Source of the DNA: a virus
Taxonomy: Duplodnaviria; Heunggongvirae; Uroviricota; Caudoviricetes
Strand: one strand, 5' to 3'
DNA: 39,308 nucleotides
Virus record (IMG/VR): IMGVR_UViG_2703718775_000026
Positions within the stretch are counted from its first letter, which is position 1; the number at the start of each line of letters is the position of its first letter. The translations under genes were made by a program, and so were the position numbers. This document shows positions 1 to 38,416 of the stretch, piece by piece. The notes beneath the pieces were generated by a model. The model was not told where the DNA came from and searched no databases. It saw only the letters and a program-made list of their open reading frames with translations.

Positions 1-321
1 TCACACTTCCTCTATAAATTCAGGTTCAGTTTGCGGGTAGAAATAACGGTACTGATAATGAATCTGTGCACGGGCTTCTTCCGGGCTGTTGAATTCCCCT
101 ACGCCATACCAACCGAACAGCGCAGCTCCTGCGACGGTCGTTTCGGCATCGTCGAGAACTTTTACCGGAATATCAAGCATATTGGCTTTAATCTGATTCC
201 ACAATGTGTTGCGACTTCCTCCACCGACTAACAATAATTCAGAGGCCTTAAAGTGCCCGATTTTTTCCAGCATCTGTAGATTGCGCTGTAATTGCGCAGT
301 TAACCCTTCCAGCGCCGCGCG
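1..321 (-). pseudogene. fucK: 3' fragment of FGGY-family carbohydrate kinase gene (L-fuculokinase-like), 5' part separated by prophage insertion
   Basis: Minus-strand translation ends ...[55 protein letters not shown]...EFIEEV with stop at 1-3. The [10 protein letters not shown]...W.QI.A motif is the FGGY kinase C-terminal signature. 112 aa is far too short for a ~480 aa kinase, and the Met at 337-339 appears to be created by phage-end sequence. Confidence 0.6.
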
Positions 322-500
322 TGTAACCAGGTGAATCATTTGATACCAACGAGGGTTTTAGTGAAAGGAGGTGAAATCACCTGTAAGATACTGAAATAAA
401 ACAGGTGATGTCTGGATGAGCGCTTAAAGTCTATTTGATACCGATTGTGCAATAATTAATCGTTTATTCTAAAATCGGCAAAACTTTTGATACTGCGATC
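322..500 (+). repeat. Prophage left-end region (attL-like) with repeated TTTGATAC and TGAAA motifs, candidate transposase-binding sites
   Basis: TTTGATACC at about 339-347 and 434-442, TTTGATACT at about 486-494; GTGAATCA, GTGAAAGG, GTGAAATCAC and CTGAAATA between 331 and 400. Terminal TGTA resembles the Mu end TGTATTGATTCAC. Confidence 0.5.
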
Positions 501-8215: not shown

Positions 8216-8767
8216 ATGATGATTTTACAACCCATGGGGCGAAAAGGCCGTGCACCCGCTCATGTCCGTGCGTGGACACCTGAAGAAGATGCACTGCTGA
8301 TTGCGCTTTATCCATCCACCCCGGTTAAGGATATTGCTGTCAGGGTAAAAAGAAGTTTCTGGGGTGTACATAACCGGATTGTTTTATTACGCGGTACTTA
8401 CCCGGAGTTGCTCAAATGCAAACGTCCAAGATTTAAACATGATGAAGATAAATTTATCCGAAAAAATGCCAGAACGATGACCGGTAAGCAAATAGGAGAA
8501 TATCTGGGGCGAGACCGGGATTCTGTCCACAAACGGGCGCGATATATTGGCGTAAGCATGAAAAAATACGGAGAGTTGCTGCCCTTCACCCGTATACCTG
8601 ATGATGATGTTCATCTTATTCGTGAATTACGGGATGCTGAATCACCACGACGTCTTACCTTCCGGGAAATAGGCGAGAAATTTGAATTATCCGAGAGTAC
8701 GGTGAATTTTATTTATCACCATCGCCGGACTGCCGAAGATGTTGTATTACGGGAGTTAATGCCATGA
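8216..8767 (+). CDS. Hypothetical protein with three tandem HTH-like repeats
   Basis: 183 aa; three ~40-aa repeats (WTPEEDALLIALY...VHNRIVLL; HDEDKFIRKNARTMTGKQIGEYLGRDRDSVHKRARYIG; DDDVHLIRELRDAESPRRLTFREIGEKFELSESTVNFI). Confidence 0.5.
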   Translation: MMILQPMGRKGRAPAHVRAWTPEEDALLIALYPSTPVKDIAVRVKRSFWGVHNRIVLLRGTYPELLKCKRPRFKHDEDKFIRKNARTMTGKQIGEYLGRDRDSVHKRARYIGVSMKKYGELLPFTRIPDDDVHLIRELRDAESPRRLTFREIGEKFELSESTVNFIYHHRRTAEDVVLRELMP

Positions 8768-29936: not shown

Positions 29937-30540
29937 CGAAGTCATCAGCCGCCTTCTGGCCCCCGTGATGCGGGGTGTTCGTCTGCTGTTCGGGCGTGGT
30001 GTACTGACCGGCACAACGGACACGATGAAAATCCAGAATGTGCAAATCACCGGTATGGATGGTGAAACCTTTGATGACGTTGAACGCCCCCAGCAGTACG
30101 GGCAAATCAGCGTCCCCCTGCCTGGTGCGGAAGTTTTTCTGGCCTGTGCTGGCGGACAACGGGATCAGGCCGTGGTGCTTGTGGTGGAAGACCGCCGCAG
30201 TCGCCCGACCGGACTTACCGCCGGAGATACCGGCGTGTATCACCATGAGGGGCACCGTATACGTCTGACAAAGAACGGCCGGATCATTGTGACCTGTAAG
30301 ACGCTGGAGATTTACGCCGATGAAGGTGTTCAGGTGGATACACCGGAGGCTCACTTTACCGGTAATGTCACAGTGGATAAGAACCTGCATGTCAAAGGCA
30401 ATGTGTCCATTGACGGCACCGGAAGATCACAGGGGACGTTCACGATGTCCGAAGCGGTTATTGCCGGGATCACCTATTCAGGTCATGTGCATCACGATAA
30501 CGGTGAAGGCAGCAAAACGGGAGGACCAGAGAATGGCTGA
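29926..30540 (+). CDS. Baseplate assembly protein V-like spike (Mu gp45-like)
   Basis: 204 aa; position. Confidence 0.55.
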   Translation: MMNDEVISRLLAPVMRGVRLLFGRGVLTGTTDTMKIQNVQITGMDGETFDDVERPQQYGQISVPLPGAEVFLACAGGQRDQAVVLVVEDRRSRPTGLTAGDTGVYHHEGHRIRLTKNGRIIVTCKTLEIYADEGVQVDTPEAHFTGNVTVDKNLHVKGNVSIDGTGRSQGTFTMSEAVIAGITYSGHVHHDNGEGSKTGGPENG

Positions 30541-30970
30541 TATTGCTGTCGTCTGGGATCAGGGTTGCGGTTCCCTGCAACTGAACGGCGCAGATCTTCT
30601 GACGGATAACAGCCTGCTGACTGCGGTCATTATTTCACTGTTTACGGACAGGCGGGCGCTGGATTCCGATGAAATCCCTGACGGCACCCGTGACCGTCGG
30701 GGATGGTGGGGAGACAGTTTCCGGGAGCGCCCCGTTGGCTCCCGTCTCTGGCTGTTAAGCCGTGAAAAGACGCTGTCCTCCGTGGTCAGCCGTGCACAGG
30801 CCTATGCTGATGAAGCGCTGGCGTGGCTGCATAAAAGCGGTGCTGCCACATCCGTGGTATGTCATGCCATGCGTGTGGGGCATGCTCGCCTTTCGCTTTC
30901 CGTGAAAATCACCCTGCCGGACGGAAGCAGACATCCGATGATTTTTTATGCTGATATGAAGGGGGAATGA
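30533..30970 (+). CDS. Baseplate protein (Mu gp46-like)
   Basis: ATG at 30533 (MADIAVVWDQ...) with GGAGGA RBS; the longer ORF from 30320 overlaps the preceding gene and is rejected. Confidence 0.55.
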   Translation: MADIAVVWDQGCGSLQLNGADLLTDNSLLTAVIISLFTDRRALDSDEIPDGTRDRRGWWGDSFRERPVGSRLWLLSREKTLSSVVSRAQAYADEALAWLHKSGAATSVVCHAMRVGHARLSLSVKITLPDGSRHPMIFYADMKGE

Positions 30971-32052
30971 TGCCTTATCAGCCCTTACCACTGGCGCAAC
31001 TGATCACACAGACACAACAGGATATCAGCCAGCGCCTGCCCGGTTCGCAGCCGGGCGTGAATGAAACCACCCTGAATGCCATTGCGTATGCACTGGCGGG
31101 TCTGTCAGCACAGGAGCATGAACATCTGGCCTGGATCTCCCGGCAGATAATTCCGACAGAAGCTGATGAAGCCGAACTCCTGAAACACTGCGCATTCTGG
31201 GGTGTCATCCGTAAACCGGCTTCCCGCGCTGACGGACCGGTACAACTGATGCTGACCACGGATGCAGGGATCACGGAAGGCGTACTCCTTCAGCGAAGCG
31301 ATGGTGTTGTGTACCGCATCACCGGCTCTGCGACCGGAAAAGCCGGAACACTGAATGTTAATGTGGAGGCGGAAAGTGCGGGGCGCGCTGGAAATACCCC
31401 GACCGGAACCCGCCTGTCCTTTATCACGCCACAGGCGGGCATCAACCAGACAGCCACGGTCACCGGCACGGGACTCACCGGTGGTGCGGATGTGGAAACG
31501 GTGCCGGAGTTGCTGTCCAGGCTGGTATTCCGGGTACAGAACCCGCCATCAGGGGGAACACAGTATGATTTTGAACGCTGGGCACGGGAAGTACCGGGCG
31601 TGACGCGGGCATGGTGTAAGCCTGAATGGCCTGAGGCGGGTAGTGTTGGTGTGACTTTTGTTCAGGATAATAACCCTGACATTTTCCCCGGAGAAGGTGA
31701 TGTGAAGCGGGTGGCGGATTATATCCGCAGTCATGATGATCCGGCGACGGGCCAGCCCGTTGGTCAGCCACTTGGGCCGACAATCAGCGTGTTTAAGCTG
31801 ACCAATAAGCCGGTGGCGTTTGAGATCAGGATTGTACCCAAAACGCCGGAAAATCAGGCTGCCGTAAAACAGGCATTAACGGACCTGCTTTATAACGAAT
31901 CGCGGCCGGGTGGACTTGTATTGCCTTCATCATTCTGGCGGGCTGTTGCAGGGGTGAAAGGACTGGAGGATTTTGAAGTTCGCAGCCCGCTGAAGTCCGT
32001 GATGGCCGGAGATACAGAGTTGCTGACCGTGGGGGAAATCACATGGCTGTAA
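30967..32052 (+). CDS. Baseplate J-like protein (Mu gp47-like)
   Basis: 361 aa; position. Confidence 0.6.
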   Translation: MMPYQPLPLAQLITQTQQDISQRLPGSQPGVNETTLNAIAYALAGLSAQEHEHLAWISRQIIPTEADEAELLKHCAFWGVIRKPASRADGPVQLMLTTDAGITEGVLLQRSDGVVYRITGSATGKAGTLNVNVEAESAGRAGNTPTGTRLSFITPQAGINQTATVTGTGLTGGADVETVPELLSRLVFRVQNPPSGGTQYDFERWAREVPGVTRAWCKPEWPEAGSVGVTFVQDNNPDIFPGEGDVKRVADYIRSHDDPATGQPVGQPLGPTISVFKLTNKPVAFEIRIVPKTPENQAAVKQALTDLLYNESRPGGLVLPSSFWRAVAGVKGLEDFEVRSPLKSVMAGDTELLTVGEITWL

Positions 32053-32603
32053 CCCTGACCCCGCATCAGCGTGCCCTGTTGCAGTTGCTGCCTGACGGGC
32101 TGGCATGGGATAAGCGGCCGTCATCCGTTCTTGCGGCTTTGTGCCTGGGCCTCAGTCATTCCACGGAGCGTGTTTCCTGGACCGGTAACCAGATGCTGGC
32201 AGAACGTTTTCCTGATTCATCCCGTCTGCTGCTGGAAGACTGGGAGCGTTATCTGGGGTTACCGGAATGTGATATGACCGGCGCAACAATTCAGGAGCGT
32301 CAGCGTTATGCCGGGAATAAATACCGGATGAAACCCTCTCTTAACCGTGAATTTTATATCCGGTTTGCGGCAGAGTTTGGTTATGAAATAGATATTCAGC
32401 CATCACCGGATTCACAGTGGGTCAGTATTGTCACGATTAACAGTGAAACCGGCTACCGGAATATGAATGTGCTGGATGATATTCTCACGCCGCTGCGTAT
32501 TTATGAAGGCGGTGCGCTGGAATGTATTCTGAACCGTTATAAGCCTGCATGGCAGACGTTTATTTACGTGTATGCAAACAGCCATGAAGAGGAGACTATT
32601 TAA
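32043..32603 (+). CDS. Tail protein (Mu gp48, P2 gpI-like)
   Basis: 186 aa; precedes the tail fibre gene. Confidence 0.55.
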   Translation: MAVTLTPHQRALLQLLPDGLAWDKRPSSVLAALCLGLSHSTERVSWTGNQMLAERFPDSSRLLLEDWERYLGLPECDMTGATIQERQRYAGNKYRMKPSLNREFYIRFAAEFGYEIDIQPSPDSQWVSIVTINSETGYRNMNVLDDILTPLRIYEGGALECILNRYKPAWQTFIYVYANSHEEETI

Positions 32604-33514
32604 TGTTTCATGTTGATAATAATTCCGGCGTGGCGAATATGCCTGCGCTGGCACCGGCGCAGAGTAATACCACCACCTGGTTTACCGAAGGTGACGGACA
32701 AAAAGGTATCAGCTGGATTGGTCAGGACTGGCTGAATATTCTCCAGGCCGAACTGCTGAATATTCTGGCTGAAGCCAGTATTCAGCCGGATAAGGCGCAG
32801 TTAAACCAGCTTACGCTGTCCATTAAAGCCATTATCGCTGCGAATGCCTTTTCCCGGAAAAACAACCTGAAAGAAATTGCTGATGCCGGTGCGGAAGCCC
32901 AGCGTCTTGCCCGTGGTTATCTTGGTCTTGGGGCGCTTGCCACAAAAAACAGTCTTGGTCCCGGTGACGTTAATGCTCTGGCGAAGGATCAGAACCTTGC
33001 CGACCTGGAGAATGCGGGAACCGCCCGTAATAATCTGGATGTTTACAGCAAAAGCGAAGGTGATAACCGTTACCTGCGCAGGGAGCAGAACGGCGCAGAC
33101 ATTCCGGATAAAGGCGCTTTTATCGATAACGTCGGTTTACGGGAAACGGTAAATAAGGCTGCTGATGCCCTGCCATCGGGTGGAACCGCCGTGGCAGCAA
33201 ACAGACTCGCCACCCCAAGAAATATTAATGGCGTTCCTTTTGACGGAACGCAGGATATCAACATCACGTCAGGAATGACGCAGTCAACCGCAGATGGCCG
33301 GTATGTACAGAATGTTCAGCTTGGAGCACAGAGCTATCATTCACCCGGAGGCAATGAAATATCATGGAATTACAGCGCACCTTCCGGTTGTATGCTTTCC
33401 GGTATTAACGTGCAGGAAACCGGCTCCCGGTCTGCGGACAATATCGGTGGGGTCTATTATCGCCCGGTTCAGATTTATATTAATAATGCCTGGAGAACGG
33501 TAAGTTCAGTGTAA
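32603..33514 (+). CDS. Tail fibre protein S (constant part plus currently expressed variable C-terminus Sv)
   Basis: 303 aa; the gix-like site lies inside the gene at about 33120-33145; the C-terminal third is homologous to the inverted S'v cassette. Confidence 0.7.
   Translation: MFHVDNNSGVANMPALAPAQSNTTTWFTEGDGQKGISWIGQDWLNILQAELLNILAEASIQPDKAQLNQLTLSIKAIIAANAFSRKNNLKEIADAGAEAQRLARGYLGLGALATKNSLGPGDVNALAKDQNLADLENAGTARNNLDVYSKSEGDNRYLRREQNGADIPDKGAFIDNVGLRETVNKAADALPSGGTAVAANRLATPRNINGVPFDGTQDINITSGMTQSTADGRYVQNVQLGAQSYHSPGGNEISWNYSAPSGCMLSGINVQETGSRSADNIGGVYYRPVQIYINNAWRTVSSV
33120..33145. other. gix-like recombination site (left), inside S
   Basis: Contains TCGGTTTACGGGA, the reverse complement of TCCCGTAAACCGA in the right site. 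Confidence 0.6.
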
Positions 33515-33521
33515 ACCACAG

Positions 33522-33540
33522 AAAAGGGTGCTGAATGCAC
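33522..33540. terminator. Hairpin between convergent S and U' (terminator-like on the minus strand)
   Basis: AGGGTGC-TGAA-TGCACCCT; on the minus strand it is followed by TTTTCTGTGGTTT. Confidence 0.45.
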
Positions 33541-33548
33541 CCTCTGAA

Positions 33549-34070
33549 TTATTCCGGTTTTTCCGGCCAGGGAATCGCCTGGTAATGCCCCTCACTGGCA
33601 ATATCATTAAAGTGCATTTCTTTAAGCTGTCGGATATACGCCATCCAGCGCGTCAGCTGTAATTTATTTTCATCGCTAATCATGTCCAGTTTTAATTCTG
33701 TTTTCCAGTCATCCACGGTTTCGTTGGCTTCCTGGAGCAGCGATGAGCGACGCTTTTCAGCAACCGTCTTCCAGTTTACCGGCACCTTTGATATCAGGCC
33801 ATCAGAACACTGCCAGTTACCGTCAATATTCACACCTTCCGGCAGTTCGTCCACTTCAACAACAGTAAAACCTGCCGGATATAAAGCAGAGACATCTTCA
33901 GCAACAGAGCAGATAATACCCGTTACAGGCGAAATACAGAGTTTGTATTTCTTTGTGAAAAGCGGGATAGATTCATAAAAATCCCTTCCGTCCTCACTCT
34001 GGAAATACTGAACATCCTCACCATAGGGTTTGTGTTCCGGGTAATATCGTTTTACGTTAATAAGCTCCAT
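33549..34070 (-). CDS. Tail fibre assembly protein (U'-like), currently antisense to S
   Basis: ATG (MELINVKRYYPE...) with AAGGTGA RBS inside minus ORF 33549-34181; about 173 aa, typical Tfa size and composition; inside the invertible segment. Confidence 0.65.
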   Translation of the reverse strand: MELINVKRYYPEHKPYGEDVQYFQSEDGRDFYESIPLFTKKYKLCISPVTGIICSVAEDVSALYPAGFTVVEVDELPEGVNIDGNWQCSDGLISKVPVNWKTVAEKRRSSLLQEANETVDDWKTELKLDMISDENKLQLTRWMAYIRQLKEMHFNDIASEGHYQAIPWPEKPE

Positions 34071-34149
34071 TATTTCACCTTGTTTTTGTTGAAAAGACAA
34101 AATCATCATATATTTATTCAGATAATCTGTTTTTTGAACTACTGCACTT

Positions 34150-34495
34150 TTATGCGCTGGAAGCTGTTTTCCACGAACCATCTATCAGAAACTGAACAGG
34201 TCGATAATATGCGGTTACCGTTGCATTACCATCACCAGCGACATCAAGCCCTGTAAGTACGCATCCGTCAGGAACTTCAAAAATATTATATTGCATTCCA
34301 ATCGTTGACCTTGAACCTCTTCGAATGCTTTGAACATAACGTGAGTCAGCCACAGACTGCGTCATCCCCGATGTAATATTTATATCCTGCGTTCCGTCAA
34401 ATGGGACACCATTAATATTTCTTGGAGTGGCGAGTTTATTCGCTGCAACAGCCGTTCCGTTCGATGGCAGGGCATTCGCGGCCCTGTTTACAGTA
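34150..34495 (-). other. S'v: alternative tail-fibre C-terminal cassette (silent in this orientation)
   Basis: Minus-strand reading from the right gix site gives ...VGLRDTVNRAANALPSNGTAVAANKLATPRNINGVPFDGTQDINITSGMTQSVADSRYVQS..., in frame with and homologous to Sv. Confidence 0.6.
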
Positions 34496-34520
34496 TCCCG
34501 TAAACCGAGGTTTCAGGGAT
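34494..34520. other. gix-like recombination site (right)
   Basis: Near-palindrome ATCCCGTAAACC-GA-GGTTTCAGGGAT, resembling the gix/hix invertase site family. Confidence 0.6.
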
Positions 34521-34574
34521 GCCGTATATCTGCTTTAAAAGGCCTTTCCACCTCTTTTTAAGGAAGGTAAATAC

Positions 34575-35135
34575 ATGCTGATTGGCTATATACGCGTATC
34601 AACAAATGACCAGAACACCGGTTTACAAAGAAATGCGCTGGAATGTGCAGGATGTGAGCAGATTTTTGAAGACAAAATGAGTGGTAAAACGACACAGCGG
34701 CCGGGACTGAAGCGGGCACTGAAGAAACTAAAACCCGGTGACACACTGATGGTCTGGAAACTGGACAGGCTGGGGCGCAGTATGCGCCACCTTGTTGCGC
34801 TGACAGATGAATTACAGCAACAGGGGATAAATTTTCGTAGTCTTACTGACAACATTGATACGTCAACCCCCATGGGGCGCTTCTTTTTTCACATAATGGG
34901 TGCGCTGGCAGAAATGGAGCGTGAATTAATTGTCGAACGGACACGGGCTGGTCTTGCAGCTGCCCGTGAAAGGGGACGAACCGGCGGCAGACCCCGTCGT
35001 CTCACGCAGGAACAATACGAGCAGGTCGGGCGTTTACTGGCCGGGGGTGTCAGTCGAAGACAGGTGGCACTTATTTTTGATATCGGCCTTTCAACCCTTT
35101 ATCGTTATTATCCTGCGAGCGTTTCGGAAAAATAA
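34575..35135 (+). CDS. gin: Gin/Pin/Hin-family serine DNA invertase
   Basis: 186 aa; MLIGYIRVSTNDQNTGLQRNALECAGCEQIFEDK... is nearly identical in pattern to Mu Gin; catalytic-Ser motif RVSTNDQ; C-terminal HTH. Confidence 0.9.
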   Translation: MLIGYIRVSTNDQNTGLQRNALECAGCEQIFEDKMSGKTTQRPGLKRALKKLKPGDTLMVWKLDRLGRSMRHLVALTDELQQQGINFRSLTDNIDTSTPMGRFFFHIMGALAEMERELIVERTRAGLAAARERGRTGGRPRRLTQEQYEQVGRLLAGGVSRRQVALIFDIGLSTLYRYYPASVSEK

Positions 35136-35225
35136 GACGCTCCCTTTGTTGGGCCTTTACTGAATTAACGCAAAATGGCGTTTATCGGTCTGTGGATATG
35201 ATAATTCTGTTTATTCAGGAACAGG

Positions 35226-37283
35226 ATGAATATTATGACGTCCAAATGGGTTCAACTATCATCAATGCCCGGAAACTTTACCGTTAAAGTTTCCGGTGGT
35301 ACAGCGGCATTTCTTGAGGCTCCCTTTCCTCCTGCTGAAACGAAAGGAGGAATGACATTTGCTGACTGTCTCATCAGTTTTAATACACAGGATTGCCTGT
35401 GGGTAAGGCCAGTATCCGGTGATCCGAACGTGGAAATTACCGGAGCGGGTATTGGTGCTGTCATTCCGTTAAGTGCTGATGTTGCCGGTACTACTGAACC
35501 GTCAGACTGGGATAATGCAGAAACACATACCCGTCCGGCAGGAAATGAAACGGCTTCCAGCTCCCCTTCCTGGTATTACGTGATTGTTATAGCCGGCCAG
35601 TCCAATGCTTCATCTTATGGTGAAGGGTTGCCCCTTCCGGATTCTTATGATCGTCCTGATCCACGTATTATGCAGCTGGCACGCAGGAATACACAAACCC
35701 CCGGAGGTATTCCCTGCAAATACAATGAAATCATTCCAGCAGATCACTGCCTTCATGATGTTCAGAATATGAGTCTGCTGAACCATCCAAAAGCAGACCT
35801 GAAAAAAGGGCAGTATGGTTGTGTGGGGCAGGGACTTCATATTGCGAAAAAAGTATTACCGGTGATTCCTGCTGATGCCGGGATTTTACTGGTTCCCTGT
35901 GCCCGTGGCGGCTCTGCTTTTACAACCGGCGCAGTTGGCTCATTCGATCCGGCAAGTGGTGCAGCCGAGGCGTCACTACGCTGGGGAGTGGATACCCCAC
36001 TGTATCAGGATCTTGTCAGTCGAACTAAAGCGGCACTTGAGGCGAATCCAAAGAATGTGCTGTTATCTGTCGTATGGATTCAGGGGGAAGGAGACCTTAA
36101 AGCGACCCCGGCCCAGCATGGTGCCCAGTTTACTGCGATGGTGAAAAAATTCCGTGCGGATCTTGGTGCTTTCTCCGGTCAGTGTATTGGTGGTTCATCA
36201 GACAGTGTGCCGTGGTTATGTGGTGACACAACCTATGACTGGAAAGAGAAGAACCCAGCGGCATATGAAACCATTTATAGCGGATATAAAAACCGGGCTT
36301 CCGAGAACATTCACTTTGTTCCACTGATGCACGATGAGTTCGGTAATAAAACCGCGACCAACCTGCCGGAGCACGACCCGGATATCGCTTCTGCCGGGTA
36401 TTATGGTGCGGAATCACGGGGAGATGGCAACTGGACAACAGCATCCAGGGCAACCCATTTTAGCTCCTGGGCGCGCCGTTTTCTGGTCTCAGATCGTTTT
36501 GCATCAGCAATTCTTAAATATGCAGGTCTGACCTCTGCATTTATTGCCGGTGTGGCCCCTGATGGTGAAGCCCTGCCTCAGCCCGCGCCGGGTGGGAAAC
36601 CGGAAGCGCCGACAGGTAGTCAGCCAGGAGGCAGTGAGTCCCCCCATCCGACATCCCCGTCACTCCGTACGCTGCTTTCACTTAAAGCATCAGCAGGAGA
36701 AGCCCCGGCTCAGGGCTGGAAAATTACAGATGGTACAATCCAGCTGACGGACGAAGGTAAAGCGTTGACCGTATCCAAACAAAGCGGAAAAACCTGGGCG
36801 CTTACCCATGGAACTGATGCAGCCGGTGAACTTCTGAAGCATGGTGGTCAGTTGACCTGTAAATTCCGTCTGTCAGGTGAAGTAAAAGAAGGCCAGTTTG
36901 CTCTGGGTATTTACCTCCACACCGATACGGTCCCGGAAGGTGTAACCATGAGTGGTACAGGCACACCGTTCCTGATGGCGTATTATCTCCAGACAACAGG
37001 CGGCCAGTTAAATCTGATGCACCATAAAACAGGGGGGAATACGAAACTGGGATCATTTGGAGCCTACAATAACCAGTGGCATACACTTGTCCTGAAGTTT
37101 ACGGCGGGAAGTGCCCAGGTAACGCCTGTGCTGGATGGCACTCCGGGCCAGGCATTCCAGATGGTGAAAGATGCACTTTCCCCTGCCAAAGATACGCTGA
37201 CACTGACAGATGTCACCAAAGGGGCAACTTATGGCGTGTCTTTTGAGAGCGTTGTCCTTGAGGTTAATACCCCTGCGGCATAA
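35226..37283 (+). CDS. SGNH/GDSL-type esterase (sialate/carbohydrate O-acetylesterase-like) with C-terminal lectin-like domain; cargo protein
   Basis: 685 aa. GQSN nucleophile motif (VIVIAGQSNASSYGEG, nt about 35595-35606), WIQGEGD block and later His/Asp candidates; C-terminal ~200 aa with beta-rich, lectin-like composition. Architecture resembles prophage NanS-p-type esterases. Confidence 0.55.
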   Translation: MNIMTSKWVQLSSMPGNFTVKVSGGTAAFLEAPFPPAETKGGMTFADCLISFNTQDCLWVRPVSGDPNVEITGAGIGAVIPLSADVAGTTEPSDWDNAETHTRPAGNETASSSPSWYYVIVIAGQSNASSYGEGLPLPDSYDRPDPRIMQLARRNTQTPGGIPCKYNEIIPADHCLHDVQNMSLLNHPKADLKKGQYGCVGQGLHIAKKVLPVIPADAGILLVPCARGGSAFTTGAVGSFDPASGAAEASLRWGVDTPLYQDLVSRTKAALEANPKNVLLSVVWIQGEGDLKATPAQHGAQFTAMVKKFRADLGAFSGQCIGGSSDSVPWLCGDTTYDWKEKNPAAYETIYSGYKNRASENIHFVPLMHDEFGNKTATNLPEHDPDIASAGYYGAESRGDGNWTTASRATHFSSWARRFLVSDRFASAILKYAGLTSAFIAGVAPDGEALPQPAPGGKPEAPTGSQPGGSESPHPTSPSLRTLLSLKASAGEAPAQGWKITDGTIQLTDEGKALTVSKQSGKTWALTHGTDAAGELLKHGGQLTCKFRLSGEVKEGQFALGIYLHTDTVPEGVTMSGTGTPFLMAYYLQTTGGQLNLMHHKTGGNTKLGSFGAYNNQWHTLVLKFTAGSAQVTPVLDGTPGQAFQMVKDALSPAKDTLTLTDVTKGATYGVSFESVVLEVNTPAA

Positions 37284-37340
37284 TCGTGACGGCCGGGAAT
37301 TTATCCGGCTGTAACATCAGTTAATAAGAGTGAGGCTTAT

Positions 37341-37520
37341 ATGACATATATAAACGTCTGCCTGCTGTATTTCTGCACGGTGGTTTGTTGTCTGTTGCTT
37401 GTCAGCGGTGGTTATAAAATTATTCGCAATTATTTTCGAAATAAAATTGATGCAGCTGCCGAGGAAAAGATAAAAAGCGGTGCTGTAATGCCGCAGCCGA
37501 AAGACTCCGGTCAGATTTAA
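37341..37520 (+). CDS. Small hydrophobic membrane peptide (59 aa)
   Basis: ATG with GAGTGAGG upstream; MTYINVCLLYFCTVVCCLLLVSGGYKIIRNYFRNK... has an N-terminal TM helix and basic tail. Not in the ORF track (below the length cutoff). Confidence 0.4.
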   Translation: MTYINVCLLYFCTVVCCLLLVSGGYKIIRNYFRNKIDAAAEEKIKSGAVMPQPKDSGQI

Positions 37521-37555
37521 TTTTTTGTGAACCAGAAAAGGAAAGGAGAATATTC

Positions 37556-37801
37556 ATGCCAGAGATTAAAGGCACGGTTACTGAAGAGCTTGTCAAACAG
37601 GCACTTTATTCTGAAGAAGTGAACCGCGTGCTGAAGGCGCAGGTTCGCAAGGATTTTGAGGCACAAATCGACGCATATGTTGATGAAGTGCTGGCCCGAA
37701 TGGTTGGTCGTTCTCCGGCTGAAAACAGCACGGAAAATGAGCCTCAACCCGTAGAGCAACCAGAGCCGGTTCAGCCCGGAACTGACGGTACTATGATGTA
37801 A
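37556..37801 (+). CDS. Hypothetical acidic protein (81 aa)
   Basis: Strong RBS AAAGGAAAGGAGA; helical N-terminus and Pro/Glu-rich C-terminus. Confidence 0.5.
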   Translation: MPEIKGTVTEELVKQALYSEEVNRVLKAQVRKDFEAQIDAYVDEVLARMVGRSPAENSTENEPQPVEQPEPVQPGTDGTMM

Positions 37802-37810
37802 CAATACCGA

Positions 37811-37830
37811 CCGGCAGGTTTCCCTGCCGG
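37811..37830. terminator. Hairpin between convergent small genes (possible bidirectional terminator)
   Basis: CCGGCAGG-TTTC-CCTGCCGG with moderately T-rich flanks on both strands. Confidence 0.35.
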
Positions 37831-37839
37831 GTGAATTTG

Positions 37840-38010
37840 TTAATGCACGTTTTGTGTATTTTCCCTCCGGGGAGAACAGGCAGGACATATCAGCATCCTG
37901 AAACAGGAAGCATTTTTTGGTTTGTATGTCTTGCCATTTTGAGATCGAGAACGGCGATAGATGAGCTGTAAGGGAGTCTTACAGGCAGGGCAAACAGGCT
38001 CTTTATCCAT
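37840..38010 (-). CDS. Small zinc-ribbon protein (two CPAC motifs), 56 aa
   Basis: Minus-strand ATG (MDKEPVCPACKTPLQ...ICPACSPRR...) with AAGGAG 8 nt upstream; inside minus ORF 37840-38034. Confidence 0.45.
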   Translation of the reverse strand: MDKEPVCPACKTPLQLIYRRSRSQNGKTYKPKNASCFRMLICPACSPRRENTQNVH

Positions 38011-38118
38011 GATAAAGATCTCCTTTTTATGCATCTCTGCTTTACAGGAGACCGGGGAATATCATAGGATACGCCACGAGCTCGAAGTAAAGCATTGATG
38101 CAAGTTTTTACAGATTGA

Positions 38119-38156
38119 CCCAGCATAGTTCCAGCTATGCTGGGTTTCCCTTTTAT
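38119..38156 (+). terminator. Rho-independent terminator-like hairpin upstream of com-mom
   Basis: Perfect 10-bp stem CCCAGCATAG / CTATGCTGGG with 6-nt loop, followed by TTTCCCTTTTAT. Confidence 0.55.
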
Positions 38157-38189
38157 GTAGTATCCTGTTGATTTGAAACATACTACATA

Positions 38190-38416
38190 TACGCGCGATC
38201 CTACCTTCACTGTATAAAAAGTCAATAAAATGATCATTTTATGATCGTTTTCACCACCTAACTCTTCGTTTCTTTAAGTAAATAATCACCGCCCTGAATC
38301 ATTGTTGATGACTTTTAAATCTATTTGTTGTATCAATTAAACAAATCGAATCGATCGTTTTTGTCGATCGATTGCATGAGAAAGGCATCAACAACAAAGC
38401 AGGAGGTTATGCGGCC
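38190..38416 (+). promoter_or_regulatory. Putative mom-operon regulatory region with clustered Dam (GATC) sites
   Basis: Five GATC within about 175 bp (about 38197, 38232, 38243, 38353, 38366), arranged as two repeat pairs: TGATCATTTTATGATCGTTTT and ATCGATCGTTTTTGTCGATCGAT. Confidence 0.5.

Follow-up and report, generated by a model that had tools for sequence, protein, structure and literature searches.

Gin-family invertases that drive invertible tail-fibre segments are a textbook system, and the question raised by the locus described here is whether it holds such a switch and how one would work with a single tail-fibre chaperone gene. The locus lies in a 39,308-nt stretch of DNA (IMG/VR record IMGVR_UViG_2703718775_000026), the whole of which we call the window. 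A first-pass annotation of this DNA had proposed a Gin-invertible tail-fibre segment with gix-like sites, one of them inside the tail-fibre gene S. Our analysis supports that proposal, as an invertase, two inverted gix sites and an S homologous to that of Mu are all present, and Gin/gix inversion switching the tail-fibre tip is the best explanation of the locus (probability about 0.93). The features of the locus, in window coordinates, are as follows.

32603-33131, plus strand: Sc, the constant N-terminal part of S, 176 codons, outside the invertible segment
33120-33145, plus strand: gixL, 26 bp (TTATCGATAACG-TC-GGTTTACGGGAA) inside S, with the crossover dinucleotide TC at 33132-33133
33132-34508, no strand: invertible segment, 1,377 bp including the crossover dinucleotides at its two ends
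33134-33514, plus strand: Sv, the variable C-terminal cassette to which Sc is joined in this orientation, 127 aa with the junction codon
33523-33545, no strand: G+C-rich hairpin between the convergent stops of Sv and tfa, a probable bidirectional terminator
33549-34070, minus strand: tfa (U'-like), tail-fibre assembly chaperone, 173 aa, co-oriented with S'v
34150-34506, minus strand: S'v, the silent alternative cassette, which lacks its own start and has 119 codons if the junction codon is counted
34495-34520, plus strand: gixR, 26 bp (ATCCCGTAAACC-GA-GGTTTCAGGGAT), with the crossover dinucleotide GA at 34507-34508
34575-35135, plus strand: gin, DNA invertase of the small serine recombinase type, 186 aa
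34590-34665 (limits approximate), no strand: probable recombinational enhancer with putative Fis sites, at the 5' end of gin

By sequence, the window is a Mu-like prophage of the Sp18 type from E. coli O157:H7. It is 100% identical to O157:H7 strain NE 1092-2 over 32600-35140, and Sp18 of strain Sakai shares 97.0% nucleotide identity with it across 30297-36037. The Sakai locus (ECs_4989-ECs_4992) is the same element, with the same gene order (S, tfa on the minus strand, an S'v fragment on the minus strand, DNA invertase) in the same orientation; Sp18 of Sakai is an allelic variant of the window prophage that occupies a different chromosomal site. The invertible tail-fibre switch of the Sp18 type is real, but already known: annotation of the locus goes back to the Sakai genome, and Sp18 was noted in 2009 to have "an invertible host-specificity region" and "atypical" host-specificity genes (PMC2669165). 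In the literature that we consulted on Sp18, we found neither the gix sites nor the crossover point described, nor the layout with a single chaperone. The first-pass annotation, for its part, mentioned neither the single chaperone gene nor the probable enhancer in the 5' end of gin, and neither the identity with Sp18 nor the published invertible region.

The sites themselves had been put forward as exact inverse copies of a 13-mer, and this proved correct: TCGGTTTACGGGA occurs once on the plus strand (33132-33144) and once on the minus strand (34496-34508). One such inverted 13-bp pair no more than 2 kb apart is not significant by itself, as 58% of shuffled windows have at least one. The 39-kb window has 16 exact 13-mer pairs of this kind, however, and all of them lie in register at this locus, making up two 182-nt arms with 79% complementarity (33128-33309 and 34331-34512). 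The palindrome claimed around the right copy is a 26-bp near-palindrome whose half-sites agree at 10/12 positions, and it lies, as stated, just upstream of gin (55 bp from the start at 34575). Alignment with Mu gix, which had been suggested as a check, gave 22/26 matches for gixL and 19/26 for gixR (minus strand). Nothing else in the window matches the Mu gix 26-mer as well (next best 17/26), the two sites stand in inverted orientation with the same asymmetric TC/GA centre, and gixL falls at the border of Sc and Sv inside S, exactly as in Mu. A third site, as in a shufflon-like system, was rejected, other gix-like 26-mers scoring only 17/26, and a search with the 18-nt gixR core at up to three mismatches returned gixR alone. 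One of the 17/26 sequences lies within gin (34606-34631); its centre is CC and Mu does not share it, so we treat it as chance.

In the orientation of the window, S is an open reading frame of 303 aa (32603-33514) that matches the Mu tail fibre S (PDB 5yvq_A; E = 1e-48) at both its N-terminus and its tip. The N-terminus aligns with Mu S at residues 1-198 (E = 3e-43), and tip residues 228-302 align with residues 434-503 of the Mu tip. The minus-strand cassette had been described as in frame with the current Sv and homologous to it, and both statements hold. From the right-hand site, S'v reads through xTC and GGT TTA CGG and stays open for 119 codons as far as the stop at 34150-34152; its identity with Sv is 58% (E = 2e-49). 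Inversion would swap the C-terminus as had been claimed, joining the 176 aa of Sc to a tip of either 127 or 119 aa. In natural flipped genomes the fusion of Sc and S'v is annotated as an intact 295-aa protein (WP_032213164.1), and Sc is identical between natural flipped and unflipped genomes. Across diverged prophage variants Sv carries no indel or stop and has a dN/dS of 0.05-0.13 at a dS of ~1, a pattern by which it is under purifying selection (dN/dS ~0.1). The intact annotated S' and the purifying selection on Sv together indicate that both cassettes encode working proteins. Judging from the divergent tips and from Mu, the two orientations would give different host ranges.

The chaperone gene is the less usual part of the locus. 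The tfa product matches Pfam Caudo_TAP (E = 5e-18) and Mu U (PDB 5yvq_B; E = 3e-14), and a tblastn search across the window found no second tfa. Mu and SfMu have two such genes, one for each cassette (Sv-U and S'v-U'), but this arrangement is not present here. Sv has no chaperone gene after it on the plus strand, and since Sv and tfa are convergent, there is no orientation in which the S promoter could transcribe both. Between their stops, a terminator scan found the hairpin on the minus strand, with 9 pairs followed by TCTGTGGTTT; it also persists in three variants (L005-L007), where compensating differences are seen in the sequence of its loop and flanks. The single-tfa layout is kept in four diverged variants, down to ~80% identity, and this one conserved chaperone family accompanies at least four different S'v tips. 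Among phages, the Sv tip is closest to the tail fibre of Rac-SA53 (65% identity), which forms a pair with a Tfa (tail1/tail2); that Tfa, encoded directly downstream of the fibre, is the closest relative of the window Tfa (52.6% identity, E = 7e-66). The two genes of the pair are neighbours and run in one direction, whereas Sv and tfa converge in the window. Tips of the Sv family are followed by tfa at 2-4 bp in P2-type, SfMu and Rac-SA53 phages.

It is not certain that both orientations yield infectious fibres, as the chaperone lies behind the fibre gene in one orientation only. The locus might then be an on/off switch of infectivity, in which only Sc+S'v with tfa is usable and the fibre of the window orientation stays unfolded without its chaperone. 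A lone tfa that points against Sv, with no other in the segment or elsewhere in the window, is what such a switch would look like, and the closely linked tfa of Sv-family tips in other phages is in keeping with it. Conservation of all 127 codons of Sv is unexpected for a non-functional product, however, and the layout is maintained in the variants down to the most diverged; moreover, the closest relative of Tfa partners the closest Sv-type tip, which suggests that tfa serves Sv also. We consider an on/off switch improbable. That the expressed cassette without a chaperone gene is the conserved one is an unexplained twist. Our tentative and rather doubtful suggestion is that elements of the Sp18 type carry an asymmetric G segment, in which one tfa, antisense to Sv, serves both fibres through a promoter inside the segment, or else that Sv is chaperone-independent or borrows the Tfa of a co-resident prophage. 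If one tfa serves both fibres, its expression must be independent of the orientation of the segment and come from an internal promoter. Our search for an orientation-independent tfa promoter in the window and three variants found no sigma-70 match above 8/12 and none conserved in position.

The product of gin matches Pfam Resolvase (E = 1e-51) and HTH_7 (E = 2e-14), as well as PDB 3uj3/4m6f (3uj3 being Gin; E = 2e-91). It shares 74% identity with Mu Gin and keeps S9, the FFF triad F103-F105 and M114. Expression of gin is assumed, because a scan upstream of the gene gave no sigma-70 match of at least 9/12. Inversion in systems of the Gin/Hin/Cin/Pin class depends on the invertase, Fis and supercoiling, and both Mu and the Hin system have their enhancer, with its Fis sites, within the 5' end of the invertase gene at a distance of ~100 bp from one of the crossover sites. 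At the corresponding end of the window gene, the blocks GTATCAACAAATGACCAGAA and TGTGCAGGATGTGA are nucleotide-identical to Mu gin and lie ~90-150 bp from the centre of gixR. Among five gin genes, synonymous divergence is lowest in codons 1-10 (0.26) and is 0.42 in codons 21-30, against 0.5-0.8 for most of the gene. The blocks and the low synonymous divergence are consistent with a Fis-site enhancer in this part of gin and are suggestive only, not decisive. One later stretch of gin has a synonymous divergence comparable to that of codons 21-30, and codons 1-10 and 21-30 also encode the catalytic motif.

To look for both orientations, the segment was flipped in silico at the central TC/GA dinucleotides, and the flipped construct was sought in complete E. 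coli genomes. The window orientation was found in 182 genomes at 80% coverage or more (143 of them at 99% identity or more), and the flipped construct in 23 complete genomes, at least 14 of which matched at 99% identity or more, each in one uninterrupted alignment; these lopsided counts come from phylogenetically clustered genomes and give no switching rate. Complete assemblies show the majority orientation only, and the orientations are compared between genomes and not within the window's own strain. The observation of a single orientation, which the first-pass annotation had named as evidence against inversion, is thus not what the genomes show. Strain SMN197SH3 carries two copies, one in each orientation. 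Two O157:H7 strains, 2-6-2 and TX 265-1, have 0 mismatches over 8,541 bp after 1,377 bp are flipped, and because they are identical over this length once flipped, the inversion was precise and recent. The switch could instead be a fossil, its sites and gin being relics, its two orientations left by ancient events and its segment no longer inverting, and the strongly skewed ratio of orientations in the database and the scan without a gin promoter would agree with this. The absence of any difference besides the inversion in 8.5 kb between flipped and unflipped O157:H7 genomes points to a very recent event, though; gin is intact and its product retains every catalytic and regulatory residue, the two copies in strain SMN197SH3 face opposite ways, and Sp18 is an active phage (PMC2669165). 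A fossil switch is therefore very unlikely.

The flipped genomes also locate the exchange. In them the marker of the outer half-site of gixL (G, position 12) has not moved and the inner marker (position 26) has been exchanged; the crossover therefore lies inside the 13-bp core. The crossover interval is thereby shown exactly, and the genomes show that both orientations occur in nature, in one case as a sequence-identical pair. Homologous recombination by way of RecA between the inverted arms (182 nt, 79% identical), in place of Gin, is the least probable alternative and deserves next to no weight. Such arms are present, and general recombination is able to invert the DNA that inverted repeats enclose, but in the informative comparisons the crossover falls within the gix core, which forms the outermost 13 bp, at the centre of sites matching Mu gix. 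Longer identical stretches lie further in (up to 20 bp, 33239-33258). The informative comparisons are the identical pair L003/L008, in which differences start just inside the cores, and the site markers in L003 and L005.

Inversion by Gin at gix would proceed as follows. Gin dimers would bind the two inverted 26-bp sites, cut both at the central TC/GA and turn the ends through 180 degrees, so that the 1,377 bp are inverted; activation would probably be by Fis bound to the putative enhancer in the 5' part of gin. In the window orientation, late transcription would read Sc and Sv into the 303-aa fibre and stop at the hairpin, and in the inverted orientation it would read Sc and S'v (295 aa) and then tfa. 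The two fibres would share the baseplate-proximal part and differ in a tip of 60-70 aa, and a population of lysogens may thus release phage of two adsorption specificities.

The G segment of Mu (also of D108 and SfMu) is the closest parallel, with a constant Sc outside and alternative variable cassettes inside, 26-bp sites with a TC/GA centre, gixL in S and gixR just upstream of gin, and the order gp47-gp48-S...gin...com-mom, com-mom lying downstream. The window differs in its shorter segment (1.38 kb against ~3.06 kb in Mu), in its variable parts of ~120-127 aa (against ~330 aa, the middle of Mu Sv being absent), in having one tfa and not U and U', in gix sites that are not identical to each other, and in ~3 kb of cargo genes between gin and com. 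An Rfam search of the window found no RNA family. The C segment of P1 with Cin, the P segment of e14 with Pin and the Salmonella Hin/hix system share with the window the recombinase subfamily, two 26-bp inverted sites and an adjacent invertase gene, but Hin inverts a promoter whereas the window inverts a coding cassette. Passages of one paper describe Gin-related switches as sharing a Fis-dependent enhancer logic (PMC4513852). The e14 and P1 systems switch tail-fibre C-termini too, and inversion of a Mu prophage in EPEC E2348/69 has been confirmed by whole-genome sequencing (both PMC4272514). In a search with the CI5 variant for a link between that prophage and the family of the window, the E2348/69 genome was not among the 60 matches listed. 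At the P1-like locus L011, no match of at least 18/26 to Mu gix was found.

The scientific gain over what was known is small and the practical value modest. The exact crossover coordinates can be used for orientation typing in the ~200 E. coli genomes that carry the element, and orientation explains the inconsistent annotation of S and S' in Sp18-type prophages as "hypothetical", "partial" or "pseudogene". If the asymmetric reading is true, the slot opposite Sv would be a swappable bay for S'v tips. The single-chaperone layout might also serve, in a small way, as a natural test of the need for Tfa to be produced in cis with its fibre.

The tail-fibre gene S of this prophage ends within a 1,377-bp invertible segment bounded by two 26-bp crossover sites, gixL and gixR. 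S consists of a constant part (Sc) and an expressed tip cassette (Sv); the segment also holds a silent tip cassette (S'v) and tfa, a Mu U-like tail-fibre assembly chaperone gene, and is followed by the DNA invertase gene gin.

Features of the invertible locus and of the left end of the window
1-339: host FGGY-family carbohydrate kinase gene, 3' part, interrupted by the prophage
32603-33514 (+): S, 303 aa; Sc is 176 codons, up to gixL
33120-33145: left site gixL, TTATCGATAACG-TC-GGTTTACGGGAA, inside S at the end of Sc
33134-33514 (+): Sv, the variable part after gixL
33523-33545: G+C-rich hairpin, eight bases past the Sv stop codon
33549-34070 (-): tfa, 173 aa, convergent with Sv; Caudo_TAP; matches Mu U (PDB 5yvq_B)
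34506-34150 (-): S'v, start-less cassette upstream of tfa, convergent with Sv
34495-34520: right site gixR, ATCCCGTAAACC-GA-GGTTTCAGGGAT; gin ATG 55 bp on
34575 (+): ATG of gin, 186-codon ORF, right of gixR

The first-pass annotation had proposed that 13-mers at the two sites are exact inverse copies, with the right one in a palindrome just upstream of gin, and the coordinates were confirmed (TCGGTTTACGGGA at 33132-33144 (+), its reverse complement at 34496-34508). In 39 kb, one such 13-bp pair within 2 kb would by itself be unremarkable, since 58% of shuffles of the window gave at least one. The window has 16 exact 13-mer inverted pairs spaced by no more than 2 kb, however, and every one of them lies at this locus, in register; the inverted arms reach 182 nt with 79% complementarity. 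When compared with the gix of the Mu record (TTATCCAAAACC-TC-GGTTTACAGGAA), as had been suggested, gixL (22/26) and gixR (19/26) ranked first and second among all 26-mers of the window, the next scoring 17/26. Two positions distinguish gixL from gixR: position 12 in the outer half (G/C) and position 26 in the inner half (A/T). A gix-like 26-mer inside gin (34606-34631, +; ATGACCAGAACA-CC-GGTTTACAAAGA; 17/26 against Mu gix) has AAC...CGGTTTAC in common with gixL. It was rejected as a gix site based upon its CC rather than TC centre and its lack of conservation in Mu gin, and is probably a chance match or a decayed half-site.

The flipped product was built in silico by exchange at TC 33132-33133 and GA 34507-34508, and both orientations were searched in 5,426 complete E. 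coli genomes. Of these, 182 had the window orientation at a coverage of at least 80% (143 of them at ≥99% identity) and 23 had the flipped construct (14 at ≥99%), so the expectation that inversion occurs held and the locus is not confined to one orientation. All 23 flipped matches were single uninterrupted alignments spanning both junctions, and SMN197SH3 (NZ_CP024056.1) carries two copies in opposite orientations (2023897-2026437 and 4542876-4545416). Several other genomes contained multiple places (up to 8-9) matching parts of the query. Of two O157:H7 strains, 2-6-2 is flipped and TX 265-1 is not; their sequences show 835 differences when left unadjusted, all strictly inward of the two 13-bp cores, and are identical at 8,541 of 8,541 positions after reverse-complementing of the 1,377 bp. 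In flipped genomes the outer marker (position 12) stays in place and the inner marker (position 26) has moved, which, judged from these alignments, places the crossover within the 13-bp core, as expected from staggered cleavage at the gix centre. RecA-mediated exchange between the inverted arms would be expected to use the longer stretches of identity, up to 20 bp, that lie deeper in the arms; it is disfavoured as the origin of the inversions because the crossover sits in the core instead.

The N-terminus of S (residues 1-198) matches Mu S (5yvq_A; E 3e-43) and its C-terminal tip (228-302) matches Mu S residues 434-503, although about 200 residues from the middle of Mu Sv are missing. Inversion exchanges the last 127 residues of S for 119 others, and the predicted swap of the fibre C-terminus for a homologous one is borne out by a fused 295-aa protein that RefSeq annotates in flipped genomes. 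Sv and S'v are 58% identical overall, with the first ~60 residues nearly alike and the tip divergent. By analogy with Mu, it is a reasonable inference that tip exchange would alter adsorption specificity. RefSeq labels whichever cassette is silent as a 'partial' fibre gene. A RefSeq 61-aa 'hypothetical protein' lying across gixR in unflipped genomes (34376-34561, +) and missing in flipped ones is almost certainly an annotation artefact of segment orientation.

Gin shares 74% identity with its Mu counterpart and keeps the catalytic Ser9, the helix E FFF triad and M114, a residue whose substitution renders Gin Fis-independent. The Mu and Hin systems require an enhancer, bound by Fis, that lies within the first part of the invertase gene (5' end), according to PMC4513852 and titles cited there. 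Two stretches in codons 7-14 and 23-28 of gin are nucleotide-identical to Mu, and across five gin genes synonymous divergence has its minimum in codons 1-10 (0.26), with codons 21-30 also low at 0.42, compared with 0.5-0.8 over most of the gene; the catalytic motif, also encoded there, confounds this comparison. These patterns are consistent with a putative Fis enhancer in the 5' end of gin.

The segment is the invertible region of Sp18, the Mu-like prophage of O157:H7 Sakai treated by Asadulghani et al.; the window is 97.0% identical to Sp18 over 30297-36037, and the Sp18 genes ECs_4989 to ECs_4992 are arranged and oriented alike. Phase variation of a Mu prophage segment in EPEC has been shown by sequencing (PMC4272514), and systematic surveys list tail-fibre inversions as a recurring class (PMC9881135); the finding is thus correct and already known. 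The segment belongs to the Gin/gix class in every testable respect but one: the Mu G segment has paired chaperones.

The window as a whole is a Mu-like prophage. Three TTGATAC-containing repeats just inside its end (about 341, 434 and 487) look like transposase-binding end sites, and the insertion site differs from those in Sakai (sorM) and FRIK804 (between prpD and prpE). The host fragment is followed by a repressor-position gene, Mu transposase A and MuB, by tail and baseplate genes including Baseplate_J/gp47 and gp48, and then by S, the invertible segment, gin, ~3 kb of extra genes, com and mom (cut at the window end). Positions 32600-35140 are 100% identical to O157:H7 strain NE 1092-2 and five further complete genomes. 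The cargo between gin and com/mom (35226-38300), which Mu lacks, encodes a 685-aa protein (SASA carbohydrate-esterase domain plus DUF6645), followed by DUF1378 and DUF826 proteins and by minus-strand ORFs. Positions 36037-37542, which cover the C-terminal portion of the 685-aa protein plus sequence downstream, do not align to Sp18, whereas the flanks are 97-99% identical. Adjacent ORFs of 123 and 115 aa at 37517-38237 (-) overlap one gene that RefSeq annotates as intact (465 nt) in Sakai and TX 265-1; in NE 1092-2 it is annotated as a frameshifted pseudogene.

In Mu and SfMu a chaperone gene lies behind each cassette, whereas this segment holds a single tfa, the only one anywhere in the window, and it lies behind S'v; the expressed Sc+Sv fibre therefore has no chaperone gene downstream. 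This layout is not a recent deletion, because diverged prophage variants (L001, L005, L006 and L007) keep it down to ~80% identity. The chaperone-less Sv is the conserved cassette (127 codons, no indels, dN/dS 0.05-0.13, dS ~1), and the cassette ahead of tfa has at least four different tips, swapped among the variants; two quite different ones (window and L005) precede the same Tfa. The Sv tip is a member of the P2 H/Mu S/SfMu family, in which tfa follows 2-4 bp after the gene in all three relatives examined. The closest phage relative of Tfa is in Rac-SA53 (52.6% identity, versus 27-30% for Mu U/U', SfMu and P2-type G), directly behind the closest relative of the Sv tip, and for this reason Tfa looks like the partner of Sv, the tip with which it could not be co-transcribed.

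No convincing promoter for tfa was found in the window and three variants scanned. From the stop codon of S'v to the start of tfa runs an AT-rich spacer (34071-34149 (-) and its L005-L007 equivalents) that varies from 51 to 109 bp, which is unusually long next to the 2-4 bp ahead of tfa in Mu, SfMu, P2-type phages and Rac-SA53; an in-frame ATG further upstream would make the Tfa of the window 186 aa. One option is that tfa is expressed independently of segment orientation; others are that Tfa for the Sv fibre is supplied in trans, or that the Sv tip is chaperone-independent. The single antisense-placed chaperone may reflect a functionally distinct, asymmetric design, a reading that we consider rather unlikely.
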